DNA of 63,536 nt, counting the filler, from Asterionella formosa (Eukaryota): assembly GCA_002256025.1 (NCBI GenBank). It is 21 parts of 21 records of this genome, joined end to end, with 100 filler letters (N's around TTAATTAATTAA, not from the genome) between each part and the next. Parts side by side here need not be neighbours in the genome. Positions count along the whole stretch, not along the records: positions 51,557 to 54,479 come from NKIB01014650.1; 20 more parts are not named here. The stretch is one strand, 5' to 3'. Of the stretch, positions 18,237 to 57,497 are shown in pieces. The position numbers were made by a program, and so were the translations under genes. Under the pieces are notes generated by a model. It was given only the letters and a program-made list of their open reading frames with translations. It did no database searches and was not told where the DNA came from. Position 1 is the first letter of the stretch. Each line of letters begins with the position of its first letter.

Positions 18237-20069
18237 GGCGCTGCCGCAAAGCCAGTCCCTGTCAAGTCTTGCTTCGGAGGTCTAACCATGTATAGAGCAA
18301 GCAAGTGGCTTGACCAACGCTGCTCATACAAGAACCAAAAACCTGGTATCAACGCAAAGTACGCCAACCGTTTCGACAATGCCCCTTGCGAGCACGTTGT
18401 TTTCCACAACTGCCTCCAAGAGGTCGATCCTAAGGTCGTTGTTGCGGTTCAACCAGATATGCATACTCTATGGCGAACTTCAGCCGGTCCTCAGTATGCA
18501 CTATCCAATTATTCCGATATTGCCGCTGATTTCCTCCGTGAGCGCCTCAAGCTCGTACCATCAAGTGCTCACGATTTCCGTCACTTGCAAGTTGCAATTG
18601 AAAGCGCATCATTGATCGACGCAACTAGCAATAACTCTACCAACTCAACTAGATTTATGGTCGCTTCCATGCTTGAAGTTGTTCAAGAAATATTCAACGT
18701 ACATTGTCCCGACTGCACTGAAATCCCACCGGAGAGGCGTTTGGCTGGAACGAACGAGTTGATCCGCTTCCTCTACGAAGGACCGGTTGATTGCGTCAAT
18801 ACTACGGCAAACTGCACTACCGGTACCCGATCCATCGCGGAAATCATTAAATTTGAATTTGTTTTTGCAAACAATAGTAGCATTGGGAACGGAACAAACA
18901 CGACAACTGGATCTGCTCGAGACCTTGAGTACGGTAAAACATCTGAGCTAGATTTTCATGAGCTCACTGTCAGTAGCAACGCGGCAGAAACGAACATGAA
19001 TCAGCTTGGTAAAACATCTGAGTTAGATCTTGATATTCTCACTGTAAGCAGTGACGCGGCTGAGACGAACAGGAATCTTAAGCTTGATTTCTTCATTGCC
19101 GGATTTCCAAAGTGCGGAACCACTTCCTTGCTTTTCGCTTTCAATAGCAACTCAGAAACAGCCGTAGGGGAGAACGAGCATTGCTCGATTGCAAGCGATG
19201 GCCTTTCGGATGAAGCGGCATTGGAACATTTAGACCACGAGCTTTCTCAGCTAACCCAAGACTCGTCTGTCAAGCGTGGACTGAAATGCCCTCTCGGAAT
19301 CTCCAATTATAATGCCCTTCACCGCCTTACACAACATTCTCCGGAGACAAAGCTACTTATTGGATTACGTCACCCTGTCGAGTATTTCCAATCTTACTAC
19401 AACTACCGAATTACTGAGATGTACGACAAAAACCTTCCGCTTGACGAAATACCTGCAATTGAATCTCTTGTTGGGCAAAATGAATGGAAAGGAGTATCCA
19501 CTGATACCGCACGCTTCGAGCTATACTTGACGCAACTTAGCAAAACCGACGTTTCTGCTGCAGAAATCATTGAAATATCAGAACGGCCAAACTTGGCTTT
19601 CAAGACAAACAAGTTCAAGGTATTTCTGTACACGCTTGCCCAAATGGAAGACGAGACCGAAGAACGAAAATCTAAGTTCAATTATCAGATGAGCAGCTTT
19701 CTCAGTCTTGAAAAACCATTGGAAATGGAACATCGCAACAAAAATAATTTTGTTGGAGACCACGCATATAAGGAAACGGTGGATATCTGTGAATCCAAAT
19801 ATGACGGTCTAAGAGCATTGCTCATCGAGCAAGGAAAGTACACGCAAAAGTGGATTCGGGAGGAGTTTATCCGAAGTCCCGATGTATTCATTGCCAATGA
19901 GGACCATTTCTTAGCTATAATTGATACATGGAACAATGATCCTTGCCACAACGACATAGTTGGCGACAACAACAGCATTGGTGCTGGAAATTGGACCGGA
20001 CGATTATGGCTGTTTATCACGGAACTCATCATGTATCTCATAACCATGATTGATTCCATTTTCCGTTAG
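18237..20069 (+). CDS. 5'-truncated glycosyltransferase-like / PAPS-dependent sulfotransferase fusion protein
   Basis: The frame is open from the contig edge. PVKSCFGGLTMYR...C.Y...CEHVVFH resembles a GT-A/CAP59-like C-terminal motif. It is followed by LDFFIAGFPKCGTTSL (5'-PSB loop), IGLRHPVEYFQSYYNY (3'-PB) and a hydrophobic C-terminal tail. A 25-aa internal duplication (GKTSELD...AAETN) lies in the linker. Confidence 0.8.
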   Translation, partial: GAAAKPVPVKSCFGGLTMYRASKWLDQRCSYKNQKPGINAKYANRFDNAPCEHVVFHNCLQEVDPKVVVAVQPDMHTLWRTSAGPQYALSNYSDIAADFLRERLKLVPSSAHDFRHLQVAIESASLIDATSNNSTNSTRFMVASMLEVVQEIFNVHCPDCTEIPPERRLAGTNELIRFLYEGPVDCVNTTANCTTGTRSIAEIIKFEFVFANNSSIGNGTNTTTGSARDLEYGKTSELDFHELTVSSNAAETNMNQLGKTSELDLDILTVSSDAAETNRNLKLDFFIAGFPKCGTTSLLFAFNSNSETAVGENEHCSIASDGLSDEAALEHLDHELSQLTQDSSVKRGLKCPLGISNYNALHRLTQHSPETKLLIGLRHPVEYFQSYYNYRITEMYDKNLPLDEIPAIESLVGQNEWKGVSTDTARFELYLTQLSKTDVSAAEIIEISERPNLAFKTNKFKVFLYTLAQMEDETEERKSKFNYQMSSFLSLEKPLEMEHRNKNNFVGDHAYKETVDICESKYDGLRALLIEQGKYTQKWIREEFIRSPDVFIANEDHFLAIIDTWNNDPCHNDIVGDNNSIGAGNWTGRLWLFITELIMYLITMIDSIFR

Positions 20070-21269
20070 GAGAAAATACCATTTGGATAAATAGCAGCAG
20101 CAAGCAGCAAGCAGCAAGCAGCAGACACAATTTACTCATTCTGGAGCGAAGTGTATAAATTGAAATTGGTCCTTGCAGAAAAGAAAGGATTTAGATGAAG
20201 GAAAAAGGTAAAGGAACGTTCATTTACACTTGATGGAATGGACTGCACAAGGGCTGTCAGGTAAAAACAACAACAACGAGTTGCTACTTCTGGAGTCAGG
20301 TAGAGAGGAGAAAAATCGAGTCTGGTCATTTGAGAGGGGTTTTTTAATTCAGAGAATGTTCGTATACGTGCACTTGACGGAATATACTTTAGTGCACAAC
20401 GAATGTCAAGGGGTGCCAAGTGATTTCGAGATGCAATTATTATTTGTTTCGGATTGTGAAGTATGCGCAGAAAAGAGGATACCGATGACTCATTCATTTG
20501 AGCAATGAATTCAATAATTTTATGTTGTGTGAAAAAATATGTGTAACTTTATGCAATAAATAAAATAAAATAGGACCGTTTAATTTAATCATCAATCAGT
20601 TAAGCTAGTCTATGCTCCATCATCTTGCTGCTGTTCATCAAGCATATCAGCTGCAGTTCATAGAGCGGATTGAAGGTGTAGATGTAATCGGGATTGTAGA
20701 TATGGACACTCAATGTCGTCGAGCAGCAAAGTGCTGTGGATATGCATGTTTTGCCCAAGAACCGGGTTCCACAGTTGAAATAAATCTGGGGTGGAACATC
20801 AAATCGACGAGACAACAGGACATGAGTAAGATTGGATTGGAGGCGATGGATATTTGTGAAATTGTCTCGCTTGTGTTTAACTTTTACGTACGGAGAGCCA
20901 GAAGTTTGAGATTATTGTGGGGAGATTGGGCAGGTTTTACCAAGGCGTGGCTTCCCATTATTTGGCATCTACGGGTCGTCTTGGTCACTTTGTTCATAGG
21001 GTCCCTTGCTCAGTATCAATACCAACTAACTGAAGACCCTGAATTTCTTTCTTGTGCTCTGCATCTGTAGCGAGCCGATCGAGGAATGCATTGTGACCCC
21101 TTCCGCAAAACCAGAGTCCCAGGTTAAATATCGCAACCAATCCCGTAACATATCCAGCACCTTCATAGANNNNNNNNNNNNNNNNNNNNNNNNNNNNNNN
21201 NNNNNNNNNNNNNTTAATTAATTAANNNNNNNNNNNNNNNNNNNNNNNNNNNNNNNNNNNNNNNNNNNN

Positions 21270-23551
21270 GCGTTGAAGAGGATTCTTGAGTTGGGGCAGA
21301 TGTCAGGAAAGCAGTAGGCACATCTTGCAAAGTATTTTTCGTCACGGGTGAGGTCGGTTCTGTTGATGGACGAATGGATGGAGTGCTCAAGGGAATTGAC
21401 GGATTGTGTGTTGAAGACGTTTCCTGAGTTGGCGTAGATGTCGGAGAAATTGTACGCACATCAACAAAAGTATTGTTCGACACGAAGGAGGTTGGACCTG
21501 CTGTTAGACCAACGGATGGCGTGCTAAAGGGGGTTGCTGATGGTCTAAATGTTGAAGAGCTTTCCTGAGTTGGGGTAGCTGTCGGGAAAGGTGTAGGTAT
21601 ATCTACCAGAGCACTTGTCGATACGAGGGAGGTCGGATGAGCTGTTGGACCAACAGATGGTGCATTGAAGGGAAAAATTGATGGTCTGCGAGCAGGAGCA
21701 AGCAAAGGTAGACTGCTTGGGAAAGTTAGATTCTGTGTTGTTCTCATTAGTGGAGGTTTAGCTGGAGCAGTGGTAACTGGGTCACAGACGCATCCACAAT
21801 TGAGGAGAGTGATGTCAAACCTAGCTCTATCCTCAGCATTCTCATCTTCGGCAAGTACGAAAAAATCTGTGCTGATGCCGTCCAAAAATTGCAAATAAAA
21901 CTCATCACTTTTAATGAAATCATCGTCCATATTTATCGTCAAGGTCTCGGCCTCATCGCAACCCGGAGAGAACAGCGCGGCAAATGGAGGTACCAATGGG
22001 ACCAAGCAAGAAGTATGTATGGCTGCTGAGTGGAGCGTGTCGTCCTTGTTATCTGCAATAAAATAGATCTTTGTATTATTTGACATTTGCTGGCCATAGA
22101 GGAATCGCTGAACAAGTTCATTCCAAACACCAAAGCATAGCTCATCGCCGGGAACCACTGCCGCACTTTGTGACATCGATGAACAGGCGATATCATTGTA
22201 TGGATCAAGCAGGCAGTTATCGTCACATGCGACGAAACGAATGTCTCTGGTTTCCACACGCTCGTCTAAAGTTTGCGAGGATTTTTTGGAAATATTTTCG
22301 TTGTTGCCCGTACGCGGTTTGCAATTCTTATGAGGCAGAGGCATCAACGCCTTATTGAAATAGACATTGCCCCTAGAAGCACCTCGAAATCTCATTTTGA
22401 GGAAAGAAGCTCCCCCTTTACAGCATTGGATGTTGGGACGTTCTATTGGGCACGATGACAAGGTCACCTCTCCATCACTTGAAACCGAGGTGGCATCGAC
22501 AAACCCTAAAAGGTCGATATCGCTGGCATTAATCAACGAGAGGTTGACAAGAAAATCATTTGCATTCTCACAAACGCCGAGACGGACCCCGAAAGGTTGA
22601 AAAATGGGTTTGGTGCACGAAGTGCGAATTGTAGTCGAGACAACCTCGTCAATGAAATGTCCCGTGGCTCGAAAGAGCACAAGGTCAGTAGGGAGCGATT
22701 TTTCTGGTGCAATGGTGTTGTTCCCGCCATGAAAGCTGACCAAGCAAATCTCGTCGCCAGGCTGGACAATGATGCGTGTATGTAGATCAATCGGATTGCA
22801 CAATGGGTTTGAAATGGGAAAGCAATGTGTGCATGTAGCAAACCTGACTCGTGAAAATGCATCCGTCGAACTGCCGTGACGTATACTAACTTGCGTTTCT
22901 CGGTCTTCGCATGGGTCGACTTGCCAATAGATGTCAAGGTCCGGATCTTTGTCCAAGAAGAATTCACTGGGCTGAGTAGCGCGATATCGCAACTTCAAGG
23001 AGGAAAGTCCACCAATGCTGCAACAAGGAGGGATTCCTGTAGATTCTGACGCCTCGGCTTTCATCTCATCACATGATGCCATGCATCCCGCCGGTTTGGA
23101 ACGAATTTCCCCCTCAACGATTACGCTACCCACAATGGAACTTTGGTCTAGATGGTTGCTTTGGCTGCCTCTGCTCTTCGAATCCTGTTTCAGAATCGAA
23201 ACGAGTCTATAAAATGAGAGTGACTATTATCGTGAAACCAGCATCGGAAATAACCGAAATTGGAACTTACAGTTCTTCCATAACTCATGGCGAATGATTG
23301 CGAGGGCGAGGAAGTGGTCGAGAATGGACCTGTTGGAAATCTCTTGTTCTTGGTAGATCGCTTATGAATAGAGAAAAACAGAGAGAATACATTGTCATGT
23401 GTTGTTAGGACGACAAAAATGTTGTTGTTGCTTCCATTCTGAAGAACAAACGTACCAATGCTAATTTCTTCGAAGCCCGCTTTGACGATGCTGTAGATAC
23501 AGTTACCATCATAGACACCACAGCAACGACCATGACGTAGTGAGGGCGCAT
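21270..23551 (-). CDS. Secreted Cys-rich protein with two (H/R)TSC..P domains (DUF7467-like) and Pro/Thr/Ser mucin-like repeats, 3'-truncated
   Basis: Phase-consistent spliced model join(23551-23456, 23360-23271, 23184-<21270) with GT..AG introns. The N-terminus MRPHYVMVVAVVSMMVTVSTA looks like a signal peptide. Two CC.GG.S.LK...TSC..P domains and TPSVGPT..PTS repeats. Confidence 0.75.
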
Positions 23552-24304
23552 TGCAGATGACTATGGATTCCTTTATATGGGATCAAATGCAGCAACTGCA
23601 ATTAATTTGATGCGCCGCTGCTACTTCGGCGACATGTGAAAAAGTGATCTCTCTGCTGGAATGGAAGCAATTTTTCATGGTCGTTTTATCTTGTTATCGC
23701 GTCCTCATAGTAGATTCGACCGACAGCATGCAAGCATGCAGATCATGTCGTCATTGACATCACAGTTGCTGGTGTGATGCACAGCATGATGACTGGGAAA
23801 CAAAGGAAAATTAAGGTGCGAATAATGATTTTCGACCATTATCTATATTCGACGTGCTTACGATATGTATACTGTACCTGGTACCAGGTCGCTCAACAAG
23901 ATGAGAAATATATTCTTCCTAAAACCAGTGCTATATATAGTACAGTATAATCAGGATCGAATGCTTTCTGAATTGGGATCAAACCCAAGTAATCTTCATA
24001 CGAGCGAAGCAAGGGGAATAATGATAAATAGAGTGGGCAGTACCAGGTACCGGTATACGGACTCGAATAATGTACATTGTTGAAATGGTCCGTACTCCTT
24101 CCCGCGGGTTGGGTCTCTCTTCACGTAGACTCTTACGTGATCGTAGTACTACCTAGTACCACTCACTTTCTCTCTTGTCTCTGCTTCTAGCCTTCCTGCT
24201 AGATNNNNNNNNNNNNNNNNNNNNNNNNNNNNNNNNNNNNNNNNNNNNTTAATTAATTAANNNNNNNNNNNNNNNNNNNNNNNNNNNNNNNNNNNNNNNN
24301 NNNN

Positions 24305-27239
24305 TTGAGACTCTTCCAGACCTTGTAGTTCTAACATTTGGGTCTGAGTCATCCTGAGTGCTTGGATTGACTTCTAACATTGCCTCTTCATTTTCAGTTT
24401 CATTTGCTGGCTCTTCATCCTCATCTTGGATTTCATCTGAATTCATTTCAATATTATTCTCATTGTTGCCCTCGTCAGGTTCAGGGTCATCCTCTTGAGT
24501 ATTGTCATTTAATTCGAGCTGTTCTGCTTCATATATTTCATCCGGAGTCATTTCGTCATAGTCTTCTTCTCCAAGAATTTCATCATTGCTTTCGTTGTCA
24601 CTAGCATCTTGATCTTCATAATCTTCATCTTGTGCATCTTCAAATGCTTCATTATCATAATCCACTCCTGCAATCCAAGCACTATCATAAAATAGTTGCC
24701 CCGTTCGATTTGCTATCTTGAGACCATCTGGCATATTTTCCTGCACAGCAAGGGCGTGTACTTGATTCATGATTGCTGGGGTAAGTGGTAGAGGAGTAAT
24801 TGTTCGTCTAGTGATCAATGAATTTGTAGGTAGGTGTAACAATTCATGACCTCCTTGCACATTGTCATTGTAGCGTAGAAAAATGCAATCTAGGCTGCGA
24901 GGTGCATTTGTGTTTGAAAACACAGGTTCTTCATGTGCTTGGACATAAGTGCCAAATGTATACTGGCAATGTCGAGCATAGTCCAGGTTTCGTTGATGTA
25001 AAATCATACGAGGACTGTAATACGGGGATATCCCGTTCTTTGCCGGAAAGAAATTCAGTTTCCTTGCAGATTCTGTCACTAGAATCTTAATCATCAGTCG
25101 CGGCAAATGTTTGAAAGGTAATCGATGATAAGCTGCGCGCACGCGTTCTTTAATCACTCGATTATTTCGCTCCGCTTCGGGAACATGTTCTTGTGGGTTT
25201 GCGTAGTTCATAGTGACTTGAAATTCATTGGAAATTTGTTCCATCAAAGGTCGAAACTCGTTGTCACAGTGGATTGTTGTAATTTTAAATCCTCCGGTAT
25301 TATAAACACGGAATACTTGAATCAAAGCATCTCGATAGACTTCAGCTGTCTGATTCTTGACCCATTGCGCTGTCCTATACATAATGTTTCGAGAAATTGT
25401 GGTGAGAAATGATTGTCCATTGACTTTCATTCCGTCCATGCAAAGAGTCACTTCGCGTTGAGCTTGAATAAGCTCCTTAGGAATCTCGATGTAGTCGTTC
25501 ACGACTGGCAGCGGCTTGCGACGAGTTGTCTTGCCTTTTAGTGTTCCGATGTCAGGCCCAAAAATTTTCTCTGCAATTTTGATATCATCGGTAGTCACTG
25601 GATTATTGTTGATCGTATTCATACGAATTATTGCCTTGAAATCATTAATTGATGGTGTACCCAAGGCATGAAATAGATCACGAGCTCGCTTAGCTCTCTG
25701 AAATTGACGTTCAGTGTAAAATGTTTTGTTTTCTTCAAGTGTATTTAACATTTGAGCATTCTCCGCTCTCATTCTTGTAGTTGGCTTGAAAACATAAGTT
25801 CATCCCAATTCTTTCAAATCGAACTGTTTTGTCAGGCAAATGAACAATGAATGCATCTTCTTTCTCAGAGTCATAGGTAATTCTGTACCTATCTGCCATT
25901 TCGGCATAACTGAAGATGTTTGTGATTGCCTTTTCATTAAACCATACTTCTCCCCATTCTGGAAGATCAGCCTTCATATTAGTTACCACGGATCCACCAT
26001 TTGTGGCCAGGTGCATGCTTCCGTTGGTTGACATTCGAATGTTATTAACCATTTTTGGATTGCAAAAGACTGTGACACTTGATTGATTATCCAATAGTAT
26101 CCAGTCACGCATCTCAGATGCTTGGTAAAATTGTAGTTTCATATGAGCTCCCGTCCATCCAAATTGATTGGCATTTGCTTGCTGTGAAGCTTGTGATGAC
26201 GGCGGGTTGTTGGAATTAACAGAGGTAACTGTACTCGTGTCGGATGTATTATTAGCCTGTGCCTGTGCATGGCTTTGAGCCTTGTTGATAGCCCATTCCT
26301 CTTTGGGTTTATTCTTGTCTCGGCACGAAGGAGATTTGTGACCTGCTTTTCCGCAGCAGTAACATTTTCCTTCTAACTGTGCAAACGATAAGTTCACATC
26401 TTCGTCTTCCCTGCCTGCATCCTTATGTTTCCTCTCTTTATCATTATCTGGTTTCTTGTAGACAGATTTATTTGTTACGTCAAACCGATGGTTGCTGAGA
26501 ACATTATTTGATTCGGTGATGCTCTTCGGGTATTGATCGTTGCCGAGTGACTGTTGAGTGTTCAGCCCGGTCATAATTGAACCGTATTTAGCTTTATCGG
26601 CATTATCGAGATATAAATATGCCATAAATTGACTGAAAGCCTGTTCGCGAAATTTATCTCGTTGTTTGATGTCATTCTCATTGTATCCATCCATGGCTTC
26701 AACGAACTTGGTGAGGATAATGGGTCCTCCCATGTGTGACTTGAGCACATCTCGTGCCACACGAAATCTCTTGGTGTAGTCTTGTAGACTTTCTCCTTCC
26801 TTTTGCTTCGTGAACAAAAGCGTTCTCATCGCATCTAAAATGATCGACATTGAATATCGATTCTCTTGAAAATTTAATGCGTGTTCTTTAATTGCCATAA
26901 GCAATGTTATTGGGTTATTTTTGATCCTATTGTAATCGGATCTCGCTTCAATCTTGTTCTTCATGGCTTTGTTGCATCTTTCCCAGAGCAACGCATAAGC
27001 CTTGGTATTATTATTTTCGTAGGCCTGTACCCTTTTACTGTAGTTGTCATAATCAGCCTTAAACTCGATCTCAAATTGTCGATTCTCTGCAGCGCGATCT
27101 TCTTCTGTTGTCGCAATGCTCACTTGCATTCTTGGCTTCCATGCCGATGTGTTGATTGGTTCTAATGACTTGAGTGCGCTTCCAATGTCGCTGCCATAAT
27201 CAAACACTTTCTTGATATGATTGATGAGGTACTCAGTAG
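24305..27239 (-). mobile_element. Ty1/copia (diatom CoDi-like) gag-protease-integrase, nearly intact
   Basis: Zn knuckle CYCCGKAGHKSPSC; protease WILLDNQS; integrase MDGM, HCDNEF, EHVPEAERNNRVIKER. A single frameshift near 25795 is a 2-bp deletion relative to the copy near 63480. Confidence 0.95.
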
Positions 27240-45640: not shown

Positions 45641-48442
45641 ATGGTTCGTACGGCGCATGTAGTATGGAGCATCATATGCAGATATTAACACACCCTCACC
45701 AACAGATGCAGGCAGAAGAACAGGAGCGGGGGTGGAGATGATATCAGCATTGGAAGCCAAGCACGCATAATAGTTAGGAGGACTAGGGAGGGATGGAGGG
45801 CAATGGAGATAGTGCGGGCGCATCAACATATGATGGGAAGCGGGATGATGTTTAGTGAAATAATCAGCATGATTCAAACTACCTTTTTTTTCAGTATACA
45901 AGAAATTGGCCTTCGCGAACCCGATCGCGTACCCAGTAATAACGCATATCCATAGCTTTGGAACGTTTTTGTCGGACAGTATCATTGGCGATGCCACTGG
46001 CAGTGCTATTATCGGTGACAATACGGGTAGAAGGTTGGGGATGACCAAGCTCAACAAGAATGGTGCGAATAGCATATGCCTCTTTGCCATTGTGGAACAA
46101 AGCAGCTAATTCAGCCTCAGCAGCACTTGATACAACCTCCTTAAGAATTTGACAGTGGACGTAAATAGCACCGTTAAGAGGAGGGATGGATGTAGTGAGG
46201 CTAGGTGGAGACACGGGTTTACAGCTGAGAAAGTGAATGCCAGCAGCGCGGGAGCGACCACGTGTTTCAGAGAGATAGGAAGCATCGCTTTCAACATGGA
46301 GGACCATGTCACTGGCAGTAAAGCGAAGTGTGGCCTCAGGATGAGTTGCACAATAATTGAGAAGGTGAGTAATAGCAGTCAAGGTAGCCACAGCGGGGGT
46401 TAGGGTAGCGAATGTACCAAGGGCCGGCAACATAGTACAATCAATAGCACGGGCATAATACAATAAAGTACCAAGAATGTCTTGCACACGTGTTTTATCA
46501 TGGAGGTCAAGGACAGGGGTGACATCAGAAACAACAAATTGCTGGCAAGCGCCATAACTAGGTGCAGTCCAGGCAGGGGGGGGAATGTTGTGGGTGTGTT
46601 GGGGTGGAGTTCGTGAATCGTTGTAGAGCACGAACAATGTAACCAGGCATAGTGAGGTCAACTGTGCGATGTTCGTAGTCCCACGTCAGTGTAAGGCCAA
46701 TGTATCGAGAGCCAGTCCAATCAGTTGTGAGTCGGTATTTGGTACGTAAAGTGGTGAGGAGACGGTCCACGTCACTACGTTTGGTGTAACGTACACCAAA
46801 ATCATCAACAACAAGCGTAAACATGAGATCACTGGTGGTATCCATCCATAGGCCAGGGGTGACTGGGCAGGGGAGGTAATGATGTGGGAGCAAGAACTGA
46901 GCAAGTTGATCATTGGCAAGTTTACCAGCTTGAGGCAGCCCATACATGCCACGACGGATTTCGGCATAGATGTGCCTATCAATGATTTTGGGAGCTAGGT
47001 TGTAGAGGGTTTGAATGTGTGGGGGAATCATCCATATAGGGATGCGCACGTATTCATACTCGGCAGGTGCAAGATGACTTTCCAGATAAAAATCAGATAA
47101 ATCCAGACTCATGAAGCGGCCATCGGGGGTACTGATGGTGCTGTTGAACAAACATTTTGCAGTAGTGAGATCAGCAGTCTTGGTGCTGACATTGCCAGTG
47201 TAAATGACACGATCACCCCCAGCAGTCCAATGAACGCGTTGGGGAATGGTTTTTTCAGGGCGATCGGCACACACAATGCGGATGTAAGTGGCGCGTTTGT
47301 GTGAGGGCATTTCATGCTTATGAATGAAAAAACAGCAATTAGTACCCGTTGGCATGTCAGAATGGGGTCCCAAGCCCTGAAATAACCGGCCAATTTCTAA
47401 GCCATTGGCAGTGGCCCACAGGGGGCAGTGCTGCAAGTCAATAATTCTCGATAGCCAGCAATTTTGCCATTGTCAGGGTTGATAGCGGTGCCATGGAAAC
47501 AAAAATTAGTGGCCAGGGGAGTAGCACTGGTTTGAGGAGGGGCGGAGAGAGCGCAGTTGGCAAGCAAAGATTGGGTGTGGCAGGGACGGCTGGCATGTGG
47601 TGCATCACGTGGTGTGTTTTTATGGCGACGACGGCTCTTGGGCACAGTGGTAGTGTCATAAGTGTCCGAAGGGGAAGGTGGTAGGGGACTGGGCAGCACA
47701 ACAGCATCGCAATAAGTGTGAGGGGGTGCCAGAAGGATCGTGCTGCCACTGGCAGGAGGGGCCCTAGGAGTAGGGTTAGGGGTTGGGTTAGGGTTACCGG
47801 CGAGGTGAGGGTTAGGGTTAAGCACCCTCAGTGGTTGGGCAGTGCCATCGAGGGCGGGAGAGACCGGGAAAGGTGTACAGGCATCAGGATCAGGGAGAAG
47901 GGGGATGGTGGATGCTGTGGTTGTACCGGGCACCCTCAGTGATGGAATGGGGTGATGCAGGAGGGGAGCAATGGGTAGTTGGGTGAGCTCAGGCGGTGAG
48001 AGAATTTCAAGGAGCTGCTGGAGAGCAGCTTTGTGGGTTGCAGTGAGTGGTGCAACGGGAGACCGAGTGGTGGGATGTAACAAGGCATAGGCAATGTCCT
48101 GCAAACTGGTTGTGATGAGGTCAGTAGATGAATGACAGGGTAGGTGGACTTTGGTTGGAAACCACGAGACAGTATCGCAGATTCTGATTGAACGTGTGTC
48201 CCACATCCAGATGCGGTAGCAGCGATAGGAATCCACAGCAGGGCCGACATACCAACCATCGAGAGCATGCGGAGCCCATGTGGTGCGGTGTTGGGGCTTG
48301 GCATGAACAAGGACCCGACAGCCAGGTGGAGCAAGGGGGACACGGTTGTAATCATAGGTTCCATTGACCTGTGCCCAAGCAGACAGTTTGGGGTTGATGC
48401 GTGAGCCACGGAGGAGGTTAAGAGTAAGTTCAGCTTGAACTA
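45641..48442 (-). mobile_element. Degenerate Ty1/copia (diatom-type) 3' half: integrase tail, RT, RNase H, PPT, partial LTR
   Basis: PLAPPGCRVLVH, GWYVGPA..SYRCY; RATY.RIVC..RPEK, GMYGLPQAG, LVVDDFGV; SDASYLSE, SAAEAE, TDNSTA, KAMDMRYYW, ADYFTKHH. The LTR begins at 45690. Confidence 0.95.
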
Positions 48443-49220: not shown

Positions 49221-51456
49221 TGTTGAGCGATCCTGCACATCGATATAGATGTATATAGGGTTAGGGTTATATCAAATATATCAGAACTCGACTAACACCT
49301 ATTGTATCCTTAAATGTCAACTTGGGATACATAAGATTAATTAGCTCATATATTCAACAAATACTACTACTTCTAGTTAGATACTTCACTTTGAATTCAA
49401 AAAGAGTCCAATTAGAAGAAAACAAACATGGCAATGTATTCAAGGGTTCCTGTCATTCCTTTGATCAAAGATTACAATGTATTGACTATCAAGACTAAAA
49501 CATTCAGAGTTGCTTTAACCGGTGGAAGGTTTGAATCTTTTGATCAAGATATAATCAATGGAAGCTCTGTGGAAGCATTGTTGATTGGAGTGAATCAATT
49601 TCGTGACATGGCTAACACATGTGCCTTTAGCCCTGCAGATACCTTTTCCTACTTTAAAAGGTGTTTAACTGACATTGCCTTATCAGATTGGTTGAATGTG
49701 GAAGTACACCCAGAAGATCAATCCTACGATAGTTTTGATGAAGCAATGACTTTATTGTTAGATGATCGTTTACCAAACAAGAGTTTTCAACGTCAACGAC
49801 AATGGATGCTATGCTACTTGTCTAAACCCTTTTCTACGAGTATTATTTGATAGTGGAGGATCCTTATCCTTAATAAATGAACGGGTTGTGCCTCAAGGTA
49901 TTTCTTTGTCTAACGACACTTCCCAATTAATACATACCATAGCTGGTACTTATTCATCTCATGTCAGTGTTATTTTATATGACCTGATTCTACCTGAATT
50001 TAATCGATCTGCTCGTGTTTTACAACAAAAGTGTCAAGTTTTTAATGGTCTATGCACATTTGATGCTATTTTAGGACGTGATTTCCTTCGTCAAGTTGGT
50101 TTAACCATTGATTTCGTAAATAACACCATGTCCTGTATGGATATGACTGTTCCTATGCATTCTCTCACATTCTTTGATGATGGAGAACGTTTACGTGATG
50201 TATCATTATATTTTGATGCACCTATGATTGTGGAATCTTCATATGCGCTGGAAATTAAAGCTGCTGAATATAATTATGTGAATATTGATACAGTGGTGAA
50301 TAAACAGATGCATTTAACAACAATGCAACGATCATGTTTGCGAACTATATTGGTTACATATCAAACATTATTTGATGGAAAATTAAAAGTGTATGCTCAT
50401 AAACAGGTACATTTGGAATTGTTATCAAATGCCATCCTTCGTCATCAGCGAGCGTATCCTGTCGCTCATATTCATTTAGAAGTTTTCAAAACCGAATTAC
50501 AACGGTTGTGTGATATTCTTGGAGTCCTACAAAATGTGGTGCCTCTAAATGGGCGTCTCCCACTTTTATTATTCCTAAAGGGATGGAAGTGTCCGATGGG
50601 TATCAGATTTTCGTGAACTCAATAAATTCATCAATCGCAATATATATCCGTTGCCTCGGATACAAACTATTCTCACTAAACGTTCTGGATATGTATTCTT
50701 CACCAAATTGGATGTTTCTATGCAATACTATGCTTTCGCTTTAATTGTGGAGAGTCAAATTTATGCGTTATTTCCACTCCATTTGGTTTATATAAATATT
50801 TACGTCTCCCTATGGGGGTGAAACAATCATCTGATATAGCACAAGAAACTATGGAACAGATTCTTAGTGATTTAGATGATGTGGAAATTTATATTGATTA
50901 CGTGGGTTGTTTTTCAATGAATTTTCCGGATCACATTCATTTATTGGATACTATTTTACATCGTTTACAGGCAATTGTTTTACAATTAATCCATATAAGT
51001 GTGAATGGGCAGTCCAAGAGACAGATTGGTTAGGCTATTGGTTAACTCCTAATGGACTGAAACCTTGGTCTAAAAAGGTCCAAGCATTGATTAATATGTC
51101 TTCACCTACCAATCTTAAACAAGTCAGATCATTTCTTGGTGCTGTTACGTACTATCGAGACATGTTTCCTAGACGATCTCATGTTCTTGGACCACTTACA
51201 GATTAAATCGGAACTAGTCCATTTGTTTGGTTACCTATACATCAACAAGCTTTTGAAGAAATTAAAGCGTTGTTGGTTGCAGATACACTCATGCGTTATC
51301 CTGATCACAATCTTCCTTTTCATGTCTTTACTGATGCCTCTGATTATCAATTAGGGTCGGTCATTATGCAAAATGATCTCCCAGTTGCTTATTATTCTCG
51401 CAAATTATCTGCTGCTCAAAAGAATTATACTACTATTGAAAATGAATTACTTTCTG
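49221..51456 (+). mobile_element. Degenerate Ty3/gypsy retrotransposon (putative 5' LTR 49221-49388, partial gag, protease, RT, RNase H)
   Basis: Protease LFDSGG..S / [40 protein letters not shown] (mutated YIDD); RNase [27 protein letters not shown]. The LTR start is tentative. Confidence 0.93.
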
Positions 51457-51556: not shown

Positions 51557-51973
51557 AGCATGGCCATAAAAGGAGAGCAAGGTTTCTCTACTCACAACAA
51601 GTACAATTTTGGGTTTTATCTTTCTCAGATTCCAGCAAATCGCAAAATTATTGCGATTCGTACCGAACACTTGAACGATGACTGGAATTCGGCAGAGAAA
51701 GCTTTAGGAGGAAATCATTCAATCCAAACTCCCTTTGAAAAAAGGAATGTTTCTGCGAAAAAGGAAGATCCCTTGTCACCACTTGCAATCGCCAATCTCT
51801 GTGAAGCCTTATGTGAAGAATTTCAGGTCTACAAAAGGATTCTTAGACAAGCCGAGAATATCACTCCGGAGCAAGAAGCCCTCTCAATCGCCGAAGTTCA
51901 AGAAAGTTGTCCCCTTGAGCCAAGGAAGATTCGGTCTTGTCAACGTACTGCCCGGTCTGACTCAGAATCTTAG
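51557..51973 (+). CDS. C-terminal fragment of a diatom-type protein (sulfotransferase-like family tail)
   Basis: Open from the contig edge. IRTEHL.DDW..AE..LG and LS.....NLC.ALCEE.QVYK.IL..A.N recall diatom sulfotransferase-family C-termini. Confidence 0.45.
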   Translation, partial: SMAIKGEQGFSTHNKYNFGFYLSQIPANRKIIAIRTEHLNDDWNSAEKALGGNHSIQTPFEKRNVSAKKEDPLSPLAIANLCEALCEEFQVYKRILRQAENITPEQEALSIAEVQESCPLEPRKIRSCQRTARSDSES

Positions 51974-52403
51974 GGTCTATTCGTTGCTCGAAAACGAACA
52001 GATTAAGACACGATACAGATTAATTTAGTTCTTGCGTCCTGCCTCTACCTGCGGGTTTCCTACAAAGTTGAATTACTATGTATGCGTGTTGGCATCGTCG
52101 AATCAAAAGGTGGTTGCGGCGCACTCCGAAATTCATACATTACTTCAAGGATTACTGAAAATTCCGCAGGTTTTCTATGGTTCTTGCTGGAAGGTTGGAT
52201 CCTAAAGCATTTCCTCTGGGCGTAAAATACTCCAAGGGAGGGATTAGTACAACCAACACTATCGTGAACCCTGTAGACTAGTAGGCATCCCTATAGGTAG
52301 ACAATTACTAGTCGTGGCTAATAGTTAGGGAAAGAAGAGTGTTGGATCAATGTTCTTGATTAAAGCTGCACAGGATGTCGATGCTGGAGAGCCAATAGAC
52401 GCA

Positions 52404-54302
52404 TCAACCAGTGCCAGCGCTAGAATCCAAGCTAATGCTGGCACCTCCGAGCGCTGTCATTCTGTCAGTTTCCCACACCATGGCTAATGAGTGGAACTCC
52501 CCGTTTTCTCCAAAACTGTCAATAGTTCCTCCCTGCTGTAAGCTTGAGTAGAACTCCCTCGTAAAGACAGTTCCAGTTTCAACTTCATCCGTTGAACTTG
52601 CGCTGACAATACAAGGGACGCGTGAGGCTTCCAAATCCTTCATCAATTCATTGTACGCGACTTGCCAAAGCGGAAACTCCATCTGGTATCCAAGAGTTCC
52701 TAATTCTGTCTCCCTCCATCCTCGAATATTTCCAAGATGCAAGTCACCAAAGACCAATGTAGTTATGGGCCGCTTGTAAGCATCTTCAATAACTCGTAGG
52801 CCACGGCGCAGTCGATCAATATATTTTTCTCCGCCTGCCCGTTGTAAGGGAATCCCAAGAAGACTGATTTGCAGGTGCTCTGCTTGCCGTTGGATGTCTT
52901 GGATATGAATGTCTTGGTGTGCAATCACTCTCGATGTTGCATCAAAGGTAGTAAGCAAGATAACAGTAGCTGGCTCAGAATTTCTCGTCAAAGCACGCAG
53001 TGCCAAGAAAGAATCCTTGCCACCACTAAAGAACAGGATCTTGATGGGTGCCTCTTCCTCCGTACAGCTGGTTGGAGATCGGTATAAAAAGGCTGGCTGC
53101 TGAATCTGTGATGCCTTATCCTTGACGTTTTCGTGATTGAAGGGGCAATGCCGACAACCACTTCCACAGCACTTTCCACGTTTTTTGTGTGCCACTTCTG
53201 TGAAAACAAAATAACCAGTCTCTGGATCCTCGTATTGCAATTCGCCATGGGAGCAAGCTTCTTCGTGTCGCTTGGAAAATGATTCCATTACATCTTCCAT
53301 ATCACTAATTTCATGCTCGTCTCCACCGATGATTCGATCCCATCCCACTCCTCGCTTTGGTGAAAATTCTAAAGCCTGCAATGCTTTTGTAATTTCCAAC
53401 TGATATTCATAAGAACATTGCGCCAAAATTGATGCTCCGCCTCGTAGTTTGGGTCCAGGTCGTGCAAAGTATTGATCCCCATTCGCCGCATAAATACGAC
53501 AGCCTTTTTGCGCCAATTTCTCAAAATGCTCTTTCCATATGGCTTTGATGTCCTTGATATTTCTGTTCAGATCAAATCCACAACATGCCACCACCAGGAC
53601 ATCAGGTTTGGAAGCAAAAATGTCGTTCCAAAGAAGAACTTTGGATTTTGTTTCTGTCTTTGGAATCGCATTCTCACATCCTGCCAAAAGGACCATCTCC
53701 GGAATCCAATGACCACCATCAAAGGGAGGATCGAGCCATTCCAATACAAGTACCTTGGGACGATGGGTGGCTTCATGACTGCAATGAGTAACAATGGTTT
53801 GAATCTCGTCCATTTGAGATGAAAAGTAACTCTGGAGAGCAACACCCTTCTCCTTGACCCCACATGCTTCGGCAATTTGAACAAATGAATTACCAACTTC
53901 TATCAAATTTTTTGGAGACAAGGATACAATCTCAACAGATGGATTGATGAAACAAACATCGCTACTGGATGGTCCACACACAGTGCAAAGATCTTGAGTG
54001 AGCACCAGATTTGGTTTCGCTTCTTCCCACTTGTTTTTCAATATTGGATACAAAGAATTGATGTCTACTGCTTCTTGGACTGCCTTGTGAATAGCACCTT
54101 GGCCCAGATTATGGGCAAGTCCAGTCGCAGTCAGAATCACTGCATTGGATGGTCGTTCACATTCGTGGGTCACTCCCACGACGACATCGTCCAATCCAAG
54201 TTCATGACATATATCAGTCGCAGCTGGCAAGAGACTGGCAATGCGGAGACCACTACCGGAAGTAGTATTTGACAAAGTATTCTGAAATGAAGTGTCCGCC
54301 AT
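52404..54302 (-). CDS. Three-domain fusion: BtuF-like cobalamin-binding protein + DUF5522 Cys/His domain + diphthine-ammonia-ligase-like PP-loop ATPase
   Basis: Intact, intronless 632-aa ORF. RIASLLPAATDI...VGVTHEC, LTQDLC.VC, LEWLDPPF.GGHWIPEM, YFARPGP (BtuF/TroA-fold family); YEDPETGYFVFT..AH..RG.CCGSGCRHCPF (DUF5522); FSGGKDS, FGDLHL..IR.WRE, FPLW, D.FGENGEFHS (Dph6/MJ0570-like). Confidence 0.9.
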   Translation of the reverse strand: MADTSFQNTLSNTTSGSGLRIASLLPAATDICHELGLDDVVVGVTHECERPSNAVILTATGLAHNLGQGAIHKAVQEAVDINSLYPILKNKWEEAKPNLVLTQDLCTVCGPSSSDVCFINPSVEIVSLSPKNLIEVGNSFVQIAEACGVKEKGVALQSYFSSQMDEIQTIVTHCSHEATHRPKVLVLEWLDPPFDGGHWIPEMVLLAGCENAIPKTETKSKVLLWNDIFASKPDVLVVACCGFDLNRNIKDIKAIWKEHFEKLAQKGCRIYAANGDQYFARPGPKLRGGASILAQCSYEYQLEITKALQALEFSPKRGVGWDRIIGGDEHEISDMEDVMESFSKRHEEACSHGELQYEDPETGYFVFTEVAHKKRGKCCGSGCRHCPFNHENVKDKASQIQQPAFLYRSPTSCTEEEAPIKILFFSGGKDSFLALRALTRNSEPATVILLTTFDATSRVIAHQDIHIQDIQRQAEHLQISLLGIPLQRAGGEKYIDRLRRGLRVIEDAYKRPITTLVFGDLHLGNIRGWRETELGTLGYQMEFPLWQVAYNELMKDLEASRVPCIVSASSTDEVETGTVFTREFYSSLQQGGTIDSFGENGEFHSLAMVWETDRMTALGGASISLDSSAGTG

Positions 54303-54801
54303 GACGATTCTATCACATGTTGTGTAATTTGCTTGCGGTATACCAAGTGTATAAGCCGATTCTTTCCAGCTATTAGGCTGATTTCAGTCTAATTGATTGG
54401 ATTCAGAATGGGTTTTCAATCCCTTGCCCCTAGATTATTTCAATGGATATTTCATTTCTGAAAAGTTAATCTAAATCTANNNNNNNNNNNNNNNNNNNNN
54501 NNNNNNNNNNNNNNNNNNNNNNNTTAATTAATTAANNNNNNNNNNNNNNNNNNNNNNNNNNNNNNNNNNNNNNNNNNNNATACACGGTAATAAATTTCAA
54601 GATGATATCTAATTTTTTAAGAAACCATTTTAATATAAATATATAAATAAAATATCCTAGTTTTATTATTAATAATAATGTAGTAATAAGTATTGAAAAG
54701 ACAGCCGCCCAACGCCACACTCTCGTCACATGAAGCAATCATCCTCATTTGCACCTCCTCCTCCTCCTCCCAACCACACTGTCATTTTTTTCCCAACCAC
54801 C

Positions 54802-55962
54802 ATGGAAGACGAGTTATGGCAAGTCCAACGTGATGCTAACAAGGCTTTAGGTGACAGTGCCTTCCGTTCTGGACAGTATGCCGATGCGATTCATCATTAC
54901 ACAACTGCCTTGACGTTGGATCCAACTCACCACGTTTTATTGTCCAATCGATCTGCAGCGTTTTTGAAACAAAACGCCACATCCAAGGCACTTCATGATG
55001 CACAAGCATGTGTCAATGCTGCTCCATCGACCTTTGTGAAAGGACATTCGAGATTAGGAGCGGCATTGCAAGCGTTGGGACGATGGGGACCAGCCAAGGA
55101 GGCGTATGAACATGTCTTGCGATTGGACAAAGACAATGCAGCGGCGACGCAGGGAGTGCAAGACTGCGAGAAGAAATTACAACAATTAGTGCAAATCCAA
55201 CAACAGGAACAAGAACAAGAACAGCAAGTGCAACAAGAAAGCAAACCAAAGGATGAAACAGACCTTTTGGATGACTTCTTTGATGAACTCGAGACTGTGA
55301 CAGCGGCCAAACCAACAGCGACGACAGATGAGGTAGTAGGAACAACAACAACATCTCTGTTGACCATTCATAAAAAGGATTTGGGAACAGCGCAATCTCA
55401 ATCTCAACGATTATTGGAAAAGAATTATAAATGGCGGAATTTGAATCCATTTTATGTTTTGGATCTGCCACCTACAGCCACCAAGGATGATATTGGACGA
55501 CGGTATAAGGCATTGTCCTTGTTGTTACATCCAGACAAGTGTTCTCTACCACCAGAAGCATATGATGAAGTACAACGAGCCAAAAAACAATTGTTAGATG
55601 ATGATGATAAACTAAGACATGTTCGAGCCTTGGCAGACGAAGGAATGAAAGCAGGAGCGACGTTGTTTCAGAAACAATCAAAGTCAATGACGACTATGAA
55701 CACAGTGACGTTGTCATTAGAAGAATTGCAAACAAGAGAAACATTGCGAATATTTGCGGAAGTGGAAATGAAACGAAAAGAAGTAGAAGAACGAGAACGG
55801 AAATATGAACAACGGGAACGAGATCAAGAAGAGAGTGAGCTCCACAAAGAAAAAAAGGAACGAGCCTTTGACAAGTCATGGCGACAAGAAGAACGAGTAG
55901 GAAAACGTGTTGGGAATTGGAGGGATTTTGAAAAAAAGGCCAAGAAAAAGAGTAAAATATAG
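54802..55962 (+). CDS. TPR + J-domain protein (DNAJC8/Spf31-like C-terminal half)
   Basis: Three STI1-like TPRs (KALGDSAF...SNRSAAFL...KGHSRLGAAL); NLNPFYVL...YKALSLLLHPDK J-domain; coiled coil ending KRVGNWRDF. An upstream in-frame ATG at 54730 is possible. Confidence 0.88.
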   Translation: MEDELWQVQRDANKALGDSAFRSGQYADAIHHYTTALTLDPTHHVLLSNRSAAFLKQNATSKALHDAQACVNAAPSTFVKGHSRLGAALQALGRWGPAKEAYEHVLRLDKDNAAATQGVQDCEKKLQQLVQIQQQEQEQEQQVQQESKPKDETDLLDDFFDELETVTAAKPTATTDEVVGTTTTSLLTIHKKDLGTAQSQSQRLLEKNYKWRNLNPFYVLDLPPTATKDDIGRRYKALSLLLHPDKCSLPPEAYDEVQRAKKQLLDDDDKLRHVRALADEGMKAGATLFQKQSKSMTTMNTVTLSLEELQTRETLRIFAEVEMKRKEVEERERKYEQRERDQEESELHKEKKERAFDKSWRQEERVGKRVGNWRDFEKKAKKKSKI

Positions 55963-56042: not shown

Positions 56043-57497
56043 CTATTCAGACTTCTTCTTCTTGGCCTGAACTTGATAACATATTTGAATTGTTGGGAAT
56101 GGGGTGCGCCGATATTGACTTTCTACTTCAGTGGCACCCACATATTCTGGATGAAGAAGTTCTATAAACATTGTTCCAGCAGTAATCTTTTTCAATACTG
56201 CATTGACCGTAATAGCAAACCGTTTGAAACGCTGTGCATGGTAGGTATGGAATTTGGGGGCCACAAACATGGAGGTCATCATGGCGTGTTGTCGACGGTC
56301 GGAAAGAATATTGGTCCATGCCAATGGATCAATCGGAATAGACTCCCTTTGTTCCCATGCCACATGATCCGCATGCTGACCCAACAAGGACAATTCATGA
56401 ATGGCCTTCCAAATGCTAGCATAGACTTGTTCTCCCATGGCGGAATCCGTCACTGTCCAGCGGTCCCCGCTGGTGGAAGCACTTAATAGTCGTTCATTGT
56501 TTCCCTCCATCCAATCCACTGTTTGTTGTCGTACAGCCTCTGGGGACAAGGTTTGTTCCAAATCAAGAAGAATGGGAGTATCTGCCGCTGCGGAGCGAAA
56601 TAATAGCTCCAGGGTCCTTCGCCGCTCATGAATGTTGGGGATGTAATCTCCTTCCATGTCTCCATGGTACTCATAGGATGTGGTGGTCCGTTCGTCCTCC
56701 TCGGTAGCAGCAACCTCACCCAGTCGCGGTTTGGTGATTCGCTGCAATCCAGCCGTTGGAAATGGTGCATGTCTCGCAGGACTCATCATTTTGGGAGCAT
56801 TCTTGTATGTGGGATGAAAGAGCGTCAATGTCCATGTTCTTCCCAAGTGCGTACACAGCCCTTGAGAAATTTCCATGGCAGCCGTCAACATGGCCATGCG
56901 TTTGTAGTGGTACAACAACGGACAATCGGGAAAGACCAGCAAGGAAACTTCACTACGACTCCGTGGGCGCTCTGAGTCTGTATCGTTTTGCAAGACTGTC
57001 ACGATGGTTTCCCAATAAGACGCCAAGCACCCAATGAGAGTATCAGATCGACACAGTGTCATTCCCAAGAGATTCTCGTAAAGTTCATCTCCATACGCCT
57101 GGCCCACCAGGCCCGATCGGTCCGCCCAAAGGGAAACTTCATCTATGATCTCACTATCCGTCAAGTCCGACGCCGTAGCGGCATCGTGTCCTGTTAATAG
57201 CGCTTTCAAGGCGAAGGCTTTTTCTTCTGTGTACGTTCGGTTGGTCAGAAAAGACCTCCATTCTCCTTCTTCAGACGAAGGCAGAAAGTCCATTGTGGAC
57301 CTTGATATATCGTCAAAGTAGCGTCGTTGCGTGCTACTGCCAGCACCAAGACCACTACAGCAACTGCTGCTAGATGGAGCATGTGTTCGTCGAACCATAT
57401 AACGGAAGGACTGCATTTTACCGAAGGCTTTTGTCCTTTTGATGACAAGGAAATGGAAAACAAGTATGGACACGAATGCGGACAATAGAAGCTTCAT
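56043..57497 (-). CDS. Putative plastid-targeted protein with two DUF1415-like motifs
   Basis: Intact 484-aa ORF. Signal peptide ...RTKA|F plus a Ser/Arg-rich transit peptide. Repeated motif LFHP.Y...RHAPFPT / LLHPEY...RRTPFPT. Convergent with the TPR-J gene. Confidence 0.75.
   Translation of the reverse strand: MKLLLSAFVSILVFHFLVIKRTKAFGKMQSFRYMVRRTHAPSSSSCCSGLGAGSSTQRRYFDDISRSTMDFLPSSEEGEWRSFLTNRTYTEEKAFALKALLTGHDAATASDLTDSEIIDEVSLWADRSGLVGQAYGDELYENLLGMTLCRSDTLIGCLASYWETIVTVLQNDTDSERPRSRSEVSLLVFPDCPLLYHYKRMAMLTAAMEISQGLCTHLGRTWTLTLFHPTYKNAPKMMSPARHAPFPTAGLQRITKPRLGEVAATEEDERTTTSYEYHGDMEGDYIPNIHERRRTLELLFRSAAADTPILLDLEQTLSPEAVRQQTVDWMEGNNERLLSASTSGDRWTVTDSAMGEQVYASIWKAIHELSLLGQHADHVAWEQRESIPIDPLAWTNILSDRRQHAMMTSMFVAPKFHTYHAQRFKRFAITVNAVLKKITAGTMFIELLHPEYVGATEVESQYRRTPFPTIQICYQVQAKKKKSE

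Follow-up and report, generated by a model that had tools for sequence, protein, structure and literature searches.

Asterionella formosa carries a real, conserved and misannotated gene, the 632-aa product of which joins a binding-protein fold and a DUF5522 domain to a PP-loop domain of the DUF71-B12 kind. The product may be a cytosolic ATP-dependent enzyme that acts on complete B12, a tentative assignment in which it is predicted to bind a cobamide and possibly re-amidates its side chains. A B12 salvage role for bacterial PF01902 homologues has been in print, as a prediction, since 2012. Literature searches found no paper on the triple fusion and none on DUF5522, and the family terms had no match in the supplements of PMC12538271 and PMC10861871.

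Results

The triple-fusion gene is transcribed without splicing

The features of the window, that is, the whole stretch of 63,536 nucleotides that was analysed, are collected in Table 1. The triple fusion is encoded in a single open frame on the minus strand, and the assembled RNA contigs crossed this frame without a joint in any of four runs (three studies, at most three samples; one of the four runs is RNA by guess only). Three contigs covered the whole ORF and one ended at 54109. Two contigs started 8–10 bases ahead of the ATG, and one was terminated by a poly(A) run. The unspliced contigs, their 5′ ends and the poly(A) run indicate that the gene is intronless, eukaryotic and devoid of an upstream leader exon; such an exon was considered as a candidate and found to be unsupported, in view of the transcript 5′ ends.

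In a hydropathy scan of the whole protein, no hydrophobic leader or membrane segment was found: the 10-residue maximum ahead of the domain was −0.24, and the 19-residue window maximum was 1.26. The sequence-only reading had described an intact, intronless ORF without a signal peptide, and the jointless contigs confirm the former, as the low hydropathy maxima and the transcript starts close to the ATG confirm the latter. The possibility that the contig is a bacterial contaminant, which had also been raised, was dismissed on the basis of the poly(A) transcript, the composition (GC/GC3 of 0.45/0.40, inside the range of the neighbours and of DPH6) and the eukaryotic surroundings, which comprise a TPR-DnaJ gene, ARM-repeat genes and retroelement remnants.

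Table 1. Features of the window, with positions counted along the whole stretch
Feature	Position	Strand	Evidence or remark
Triple-fusion ORF, 632 aa	52404..54302	-	ORF translation, Pfam domains, homologue search
Transcribed span without splicing; 5′ ends around 54310-54312, terminal poly(A) run at 52298	52298..54312	-	Assembled RNA contigs, ends approximate
Class III binding-protein fold, signal-less cysteine subfamily (residues 17-325), with H46-E47-C48, C106-x-x-C109, C241-G242, W189 and W199	53328..54254	-	Pfam, fold search, alignments
Linker, low confidence, likely flexible (residues 328-339)	53286..53321	-	pLDDT <50
DUF5522 (residues 346-392), predicted metal-binding module, with invariant H346, C378, C379, C383, H385, C386 and H390	53127..53267	-	Pfam, alignment
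DUF71/PF01902 PP-loop ATP pyrophosphatase domain (residues 417-615)	52458..53054	-	Pfam, fold searches
PP-loop SGGKDS (residues 426-431)	53010..53027	-	Kept in 160/166 triple fusions
GENGEFH, DUF71-B12 signature (residues 598-604)	52491..52511	-	Sequence motif; definition of PMC3541065
Neighbour, a fragment next to an assembly gap, transcribed separately	51560..52317		RNA contigs, which extend to the 3′ end of the triple-fusion gene; no clear Pfam match
TPR-DnaJ gene, divergent	54730..55962	+	
484-aa ORF	56043..57497	-	Weak DUF1415 match
Retroelement remnants	49762..50616; 46558..47355	+; -	Retroviral-type aspartyl protease, RVT_2-like reverse transcriptase fragment
ORFs of 460-720 aa	12777..14933; 18288..20069; 21214..23082; 24249..27129		No Pfam match above cut-off

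Domain architecture and predicted structure

The three Pfam domains that had been proposed from the sequence were all recovered above cut-off: Peripla_BP_2 at residues 136–252 (27.9 bits against a cut-off of 27.5, which is marginal by itself), DUF5522 (PF17653) at residues 346–392 (81.1 bits, gathering score 25), and Diphthami_syn_2 (PF01902) at residues 422–607 (47.7 bits). The motifs CCGSGCRHCPF, SGGKDS and GENGEFH lie where that reading had placed them. The AlphaFold model, built from 70 homologues, had a mean pLDDT of 89.5. In fold searches, residues 13–329 matched class III binding proteins (Z 20–22) and residues 417–615 matched the Dph6-type PP-loop fold (Z 17.0, rmsd 2.5, 172 aligned), and phmmer against the PDB gave almost no matches for the 632-aa protein alone. 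No fold match was obtained for DUF5522, which was included with the PP-loop domain in a search where the latter filled the list. The four Cys and three His residues of DUF5522 are invariant, and the domain is predicted to be a metal-binding module.

The PP-loop domain belongs to the DUF71-B12 kind

DUF71/COG2102 has been split into Dph6, which carries an EGGE/DxE motif, and DUF71-B12, which carries ENGEF/YH (PMC3541065; de Crecy-Lagard et al. 2012). According to the accessible text of that paper, 75 of 102 DUF71-B12 genes adjoin B12 transporters, the subgroup was proposed to act like CbiZ in pseudo-B12 salvage, and the Glu-to-His change in its signature was read as an altered reaction; PP-loop enzymes of the DUF71/Dph6 fold adenylate their substrate, and Dph6 then amidates it. 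In the accessible part of PMC5041015, DUF71-B12 is still given as "function unknown".

The GENGEFH motif of the 632-aa protein satisfies the ENGEF/YH signature. Among 166 triple fusions, the PP-loop was kept in 160, as was G-E-x-G-E-F/Y-H, and the exact signature form was present in 85, whereas the Dph6 form of the motif was present in none. With the archaeal model TIGR03679, the 632-aa protein scored 28.6 bits against a cut-off of 197.3. Elsewhere in the genome (L001) there is a canonical DPH6, which has GEGGEYE and the RidA domains; BLAST gave 21.6 bits to this DPH6 domain, whereas the median score to bacterial fusions was 150. A quick maximum-likelihood tree was built from 105 domains, unrooted and with a single Dph6 sequence on a very long outside branch; in it, the query fell in the bacterial-type group, inside a clade of DUF5522-fused sequences (SH-aLRT 99) that also holds riboswitch-controlled bacterial genes. 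The domain thus groups with bacterial DUF71 and away from Dph6, and the earlier claim that it is not Dph6 is borne out by the signature, the tree and the TIGR03679 score, along with the separate DPH6 that was to be looked for.

These results make it highly improbable that the protein is a second diphthine–ammonia ligase with eEF2 as its substrate, the function given in many database names. The PF01902 match, the archaeal Dph6 as the closest solved fold and the automatic names all agree with such an activity, whereas the score far below the TIGR03679 cut-off, the absence of the Dph6 motif from all 166 triple fusions, the separately encoded DPH6 and the weak similarity to its domain argue against it. 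In addition, diphthamide is, to our knowledge, absent from bacteria. The names "diphthamide synthase" and "ABC transporter substrate-binding protein" are therefore wrong for many protist and early-fungal proteins.

The domain shares with Dph6 the fold and the ATP-binding loop, so that Dph6 serves as a model for adenylation followed by amidation, but neither the EGGE/DxE motif nor the RidA domains are present in the 632-aa protein. With the DUF71-B12 subgroup, it shares the PP-loop and the signature, with linkage to B12 uptake genes seen in a minority of its bacterial loci; however, DUF71-B12 proteins as described in the accessible text of PMC3541065 are prokaryotic, stand-alone and often encoded beside cbiB, whereas members of the triple-fusion clade carry a DUF5522 fusion, joined in eukaryotes by the binding fold, and the carriers of this clade are mostly without CbiB.

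The first domain is a signal-less, cysteine-containing subfamily

In the profile search with the first domain, V. cholerae BtuF (89.8 bits) ranked at the top together with one uncharacterised protein, followed by two heme-binding proteins (72.5 and 68.3 bits), and binders named for hydroxamates or siderophores scored about 45 bits or below. In the fold searches, heme-binding proteins were equal to or above BtuF (Z 20–22, 13–21% identity). Atlas clusters similar to the domain are auto-named "cobalamin-binding protein", which is a label and not evidence.

Among 97 stand-alone bacterial relatives, the extension before the domain had a median of 0 and a maximum of 22 residues, and the H-x-C, C-x-x-C and C-G motifs were present in 90–97 of the 97. 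Across 70 sequences, conservation was 0.99 for C48 and 1.00 for C106, C109 and C241, and a His was also near-invariant. The domain resembles BtuF in its class III binding-protein fold and in having BtuF as its best named profile match, but differs in the missing signal peptide, the conserved Cys/His motifs and an identity of 14–18%, and FecCD-type permease genes adjoin the binding-fold gene in only one locus (L119), beside a separate secreted binder. The domain is therefore not the BtuF-like domain of the sequence-only reading in the canonical sense: it forms a subfamily of its own, signal-less and with four conserved cysteines, bacteria included, and is no transporter subunit. Judging from the alignment with BtuF and from the BtuF structure, these cysteines would line the ligand cleft.

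The algal protein CBA1, as described in the accessible text of PMC10828217, likewise combines a BtuF-like fold with an algal host and a link to B12, but has a signal peptide, whereas the 632-aa protein has none. The A. formosa genome also encodes a secreted CBA1-like protein (L207:1126-2238, minus strand; G000:C12513), which has a hydrophobic leader and is 30% identical over 236 columns to the bacterial binder of a riboswitch-led operon. No sequence similarity was found between the 632-aa protein and this L207 protein, which was identified via a bacterial query and represented CBA1 in the comparison.

The fusion is present in many eukaryotic groups

The full-length homologue search gave 472 matches among 7999 candidates. 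Of the 120 matches listed, most were full-length, and the named ones were mostly from diatoms (Fragilaria 55%, Cylindrotheca, Nitzschia, Chaetoceros, Thalassiosirales) and included a "Skav" gene model, which we take to be that of a Symbiodiniaceae dinoflagellate. A profile search with cluster look-ups, in which the architectures were checked, also found three-domain proteins in Achlya, Phytophthora kernoviae, Chytriomyces, Rhynchopus, Rhodosorus and Creolimax. The groups with the triple fusion in this survey, which records presence only for eukaryotes, thus include oomycetes, chytrids, red algae, a diplonemid and an ichthyosporean, as well as one bacterial MAG (L034). Two-domain DUF5522-DUF71 proteins were found in Gracilariopsis, Chromera and many bacteria; among 301 genomes of the family of G001, only G001 carried this double fusion. 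One homologue (P0057) continues at its C terminus into an additional spermidine synthase domain; this arrangement was seen in one sequence only and is possibly a gene-model join.

Sequences from chytrids, oomycetes and the diplonemid occupy deeper positions in the tree than the bacterial fusions do, and the bacterial L034 lies among the eukaryotes; the tree therefore gives no direction of transfer. The earlier suggestion of an acquired, fused operon is accordingly too narrow if applied to a diatom only, as the triple fusion extends over many eukaryotic supergroups.

Chytridiales retain B12-dependent genes, according to the accessible text of PMC8085122, which fits the presence of the triple fusion in chytrids. 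A list of horizontally acquired diatom cobalamin genes is given in bioRxiv 10.1101/2020.01.24.918219, in the accessible text of which the triple-fusion gene is not mentioned and "diphth" and "BtuF" have 0 occurrences.

Some bacterial loci are under cobalamin riboswitches

The double-fusion set comprised 79 bacterial loci, 48 of them with full DUF5522-DUF71, and 26 of the 79 were scanned for RNAs. A binding-fold gene lay directly upstream of, or was fused to, DUF5522-DUF71 in nine of the 48 full loci. Cobalamin riboswitches were found in two of the 26 scanned loci (L008 and L011), both in the order riboswitch, DUF6580, binding fold, DUF5522-DUF71. The genomes of L008 and L011 have only two and three cobalamin riboswitches in total, and in L011 a TonB receptor is under a second one. 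A FecCD-type transporter adjoins L031 and L042 and CobT is near L028; most loci had nothing of this kind.

For the binding fold, 110 further loci (30 alphaproteobacterial and 80 metagenomic) formed an independent set, in seven of which a plain DUF71 gene was in the same locus. Riboswitches were found in none of 20 alphaproteobacterial loci (20 of the 30 scanned, 1.5 kb flanks), in two of 20 metagenomic loci (20 of the 80, picked for length or a DUF71 neighbour) and in two of 20 plain DUF71 loci. At L119, a riboswitch is followed by a secreted CBA1-like binding protein, the signal-less binding-fold protein, FecCD and an ABC ATPase; the sharing of one transporter operon by the secreted and the signal-less binder suggests that they have different jobs. 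A cobalamin adenosyltransferase gene is beside the binding-fold gene in L144, and a riboswitch with DUF6580 is present at the binding-fold locus L104. In all three locus sets, the neighbours were mostly unrelated to B12, and those of stand-alone DUF5522 genes showed no pattern in the eight loci scanned.

The link of the bacterial context to B12 is thus real but thin: as regards the proposed clustering of the bacterial homologues with B12 genes, the riboswitch operons L008 and L011 are examples, whereas most loci have no B12 gene nearby. A ligand other than a corrinoid, such as heme, another tetrapyrrole or a metal chelate, with the B12 context of a few bacteria being secondary, would agree with this scarcity of B12 genes and riboswitches and with the heme-binding proteins that head both fold searches. 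Such a ligand is unlikely, however, as the binding-fold and DUF71 halves each appear independently under cobalamin riboswitches, no heme or siderophore genes recur among the neighbours, and the binding fold was seen in no genome without B12-binding domains (all 44 carriers had one; see below).

Several further regularities were observed in these loci. DUF6580 recurs 3′ of cobalamin riboswitches in L008, L011, L016 (cut at the contig end), L104 and L212, which makes it a candidate B12 transport protein; no literature pairing DUF6580 with cobalamin was found. A glutathione peroxidase gene adjoins the cysteine-type binding-fold gene in four of the 30 alphaproteobacterial loci (L177, L185, L187 and L198), and btuE of the E. 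coli btu operon encodes a glutathione peroxidase. In the Gemmatimonadota MAGs L003, L005, L007, L027 and L029, the double fusion is near a multicopper oxidase and mostly amidohydrolases, a neighbourhood that is probably lineage synteny.

Carriers of the double fusion use B12 and mostly lack CbiB and CobQ

In an alphaproteobacterial sample of 401 genomes, the binding fold was found in 45 and DUF71 in 26 (strong E-values). Of the 44 binding-fold genomes compared, 12 also had DUF71, versus 12 of the 355 others (p 8e-7, uncorrected for kinship; the seed and one unpublished genome excluded). A B12-binding domain was present in all 44 binding-fold genomes versus 22 of 36 controls, these being the first 36 non-carriers by handle (kinship again uncorrected), and, among genomes of at most 2 Mb, in four of four carriers versus four of 17 controls. 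CbiB was present in 30 of the 44 binding-fold genomes.

For the double fusion, 40 genomes from the 48 loci (few lineages, all at least 2.7 Mb, often incomplete MAGs, taken without a matched control) had a B12-binding domain in 40 cases, CbiB in two, CobQ in two and the binding fold in 16. The binding-fold gene was not found in the other 24 of the 40 genomes, suggesting that the parts also work apart. The A. formosa genome encodes METH, METE, the CBA1-like secreted protein and a CobS-CobT fusion, and searches of its fragmented assembly gave no CbiB, CbiZ, CobU or CobQ. The CobS-CobT fusion (L083:187-2556; G000:C2410) is a 789-aa protein with the B12 lower-ligand remodelling enzymes in one chain.

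According to the 2012 DUF71-B12 proposal, the PP-loop domain would stand in for CbiZ, cleaving pseudo-B12 to give cobyric acid, which would then be rebuilt. In bacteria, an anti-correlation exists between DUF71-B12 and CbiZ (accessible text of PMC3541065), and P. tricornutum, as reported in the accessible text of bioRxiv 10.64898/2026.08.07.738727, remodels pseudocobalamin with no CbiZ identified; the presence of CobS-CobT without a detected CbiZ in A. formosa points the same way. Rebuilding from cobyric acid, however, requires CbiB, which is as rare in the bacterial carriers as noted above, and hydrolysis does not require an intact ATP-activating loop, so that a CbiZ-like activity appears quite unlikely here. 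For carriers that use B12 and are mostly devoid of CbiB, a cleavage step ending in cobyric acid would lead nowhere, and, with CobQ mostly missing as well, they have no known route to restore lost side-chain amides. The rarity of both enzymes thus argues against the published CbiZ-like idea, suits an action on complete cobamides and favours their repair.

Discussion

The ligand of the triple-fusion protein is probably a cobamide. Re-amidation of the B12 side chains by the protein is a more tentative proposal. In such a mechanism, the first domain would hold the cobamide inside the cell, and its conserved cysteines would bind a metal or the cobalt of the cobamide. The PP-loop domain would adenylate a free carboxylate of the cobamide, and free ammonia would displace AMP, as in Dph6, giving back the amide in organisms without CobQ/CbiP; DUF5522 would be an accessory metal-binding module. 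The side chains of cobalamin deamidate spontaneously. The reaction proposed is the ATP-dependent amidation of a corrin side chain that the cobyric acid synthase CobQ/CbiP performs, but CobQ/CbiP, a family with its own glutaminase that is unrelated to the triple fusion, was found neither in the A. formosa assembly nor in more than two of the 40 bacterial carriers.

Against repair, a His stands in place of the catalytic Glu of Dph6, no ammonia-supplying (glutaminase) or RidA domain is fused to the protein, and literature searches gave nothing relevant on cobalamin side-chain repair. The same Glu-to-His change would fit a protein that acts on B12 by other chemistry, in which a metal, an Fe-S cluster or cobalt would be bound by the cysteine-lined fold and DUF5522; the protein could then be an intracellular B12 chaperone or processing enzyme that exchanges ligands, carries out a reduction, or uses ATP to transfer sulfur or adenyl groups in the manner of LarE/TtuA-type PP-loop enzymes. 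The near-invariance of four Cys and one His in the binding fold, kept in nearly all of the stand-alone relatives, the further Cys and His residues of DUF5522, and the glutathione peroxidase and adenosyltransferase neighbours are consistent with such chemistry. However, the closest fold to the PP-loop domain is Dph6, with a Z of 17.0 versus 8.7 or less for LarE and thiolases, DUF5522 is missing from most DUF71-B12 proteins, and the putative clustering of the cysteines in the cleft comes from the alignment. We regard other chemistry as the main rival to re-amidation, somewhat less likely than the latter and ahead of a ligand other than a corrinoid.

Re-amidation of complete cobamides may be the more attractive reading, and a hitherto undescribed B12 damage-repair enzyme could possibly be spread across diatoms, dinoflagellates, red algae, oomycetes, chytrids, diplonemids and ichthyosporeans. 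In this enzyme, a transporter-type fold would have become a cysteine/metal-lined holder of cobamides in the cytosol and would supply an ATP-dependent amide ligase with them. The known algal B12 toolkit consists of uptake (CBA1) and lower-ligand remodelling (CobT/CobS), and no eukaryotic enzyme for corrin side-chain repair was found in the literature. The fusion carries the DUF71-B12 family into genetically tractable eukaryotes and links to it the signal-less "cobalamin-binding protein" and DUF5522, which are both orphan families, and one soluble protein becomes a means to test the 2012 prediction. The growth of phytoplankton is limited by B12, and repair, if true, would allow organisms that consume B12 to regain deamidated vitamin, which they are unable to remake.
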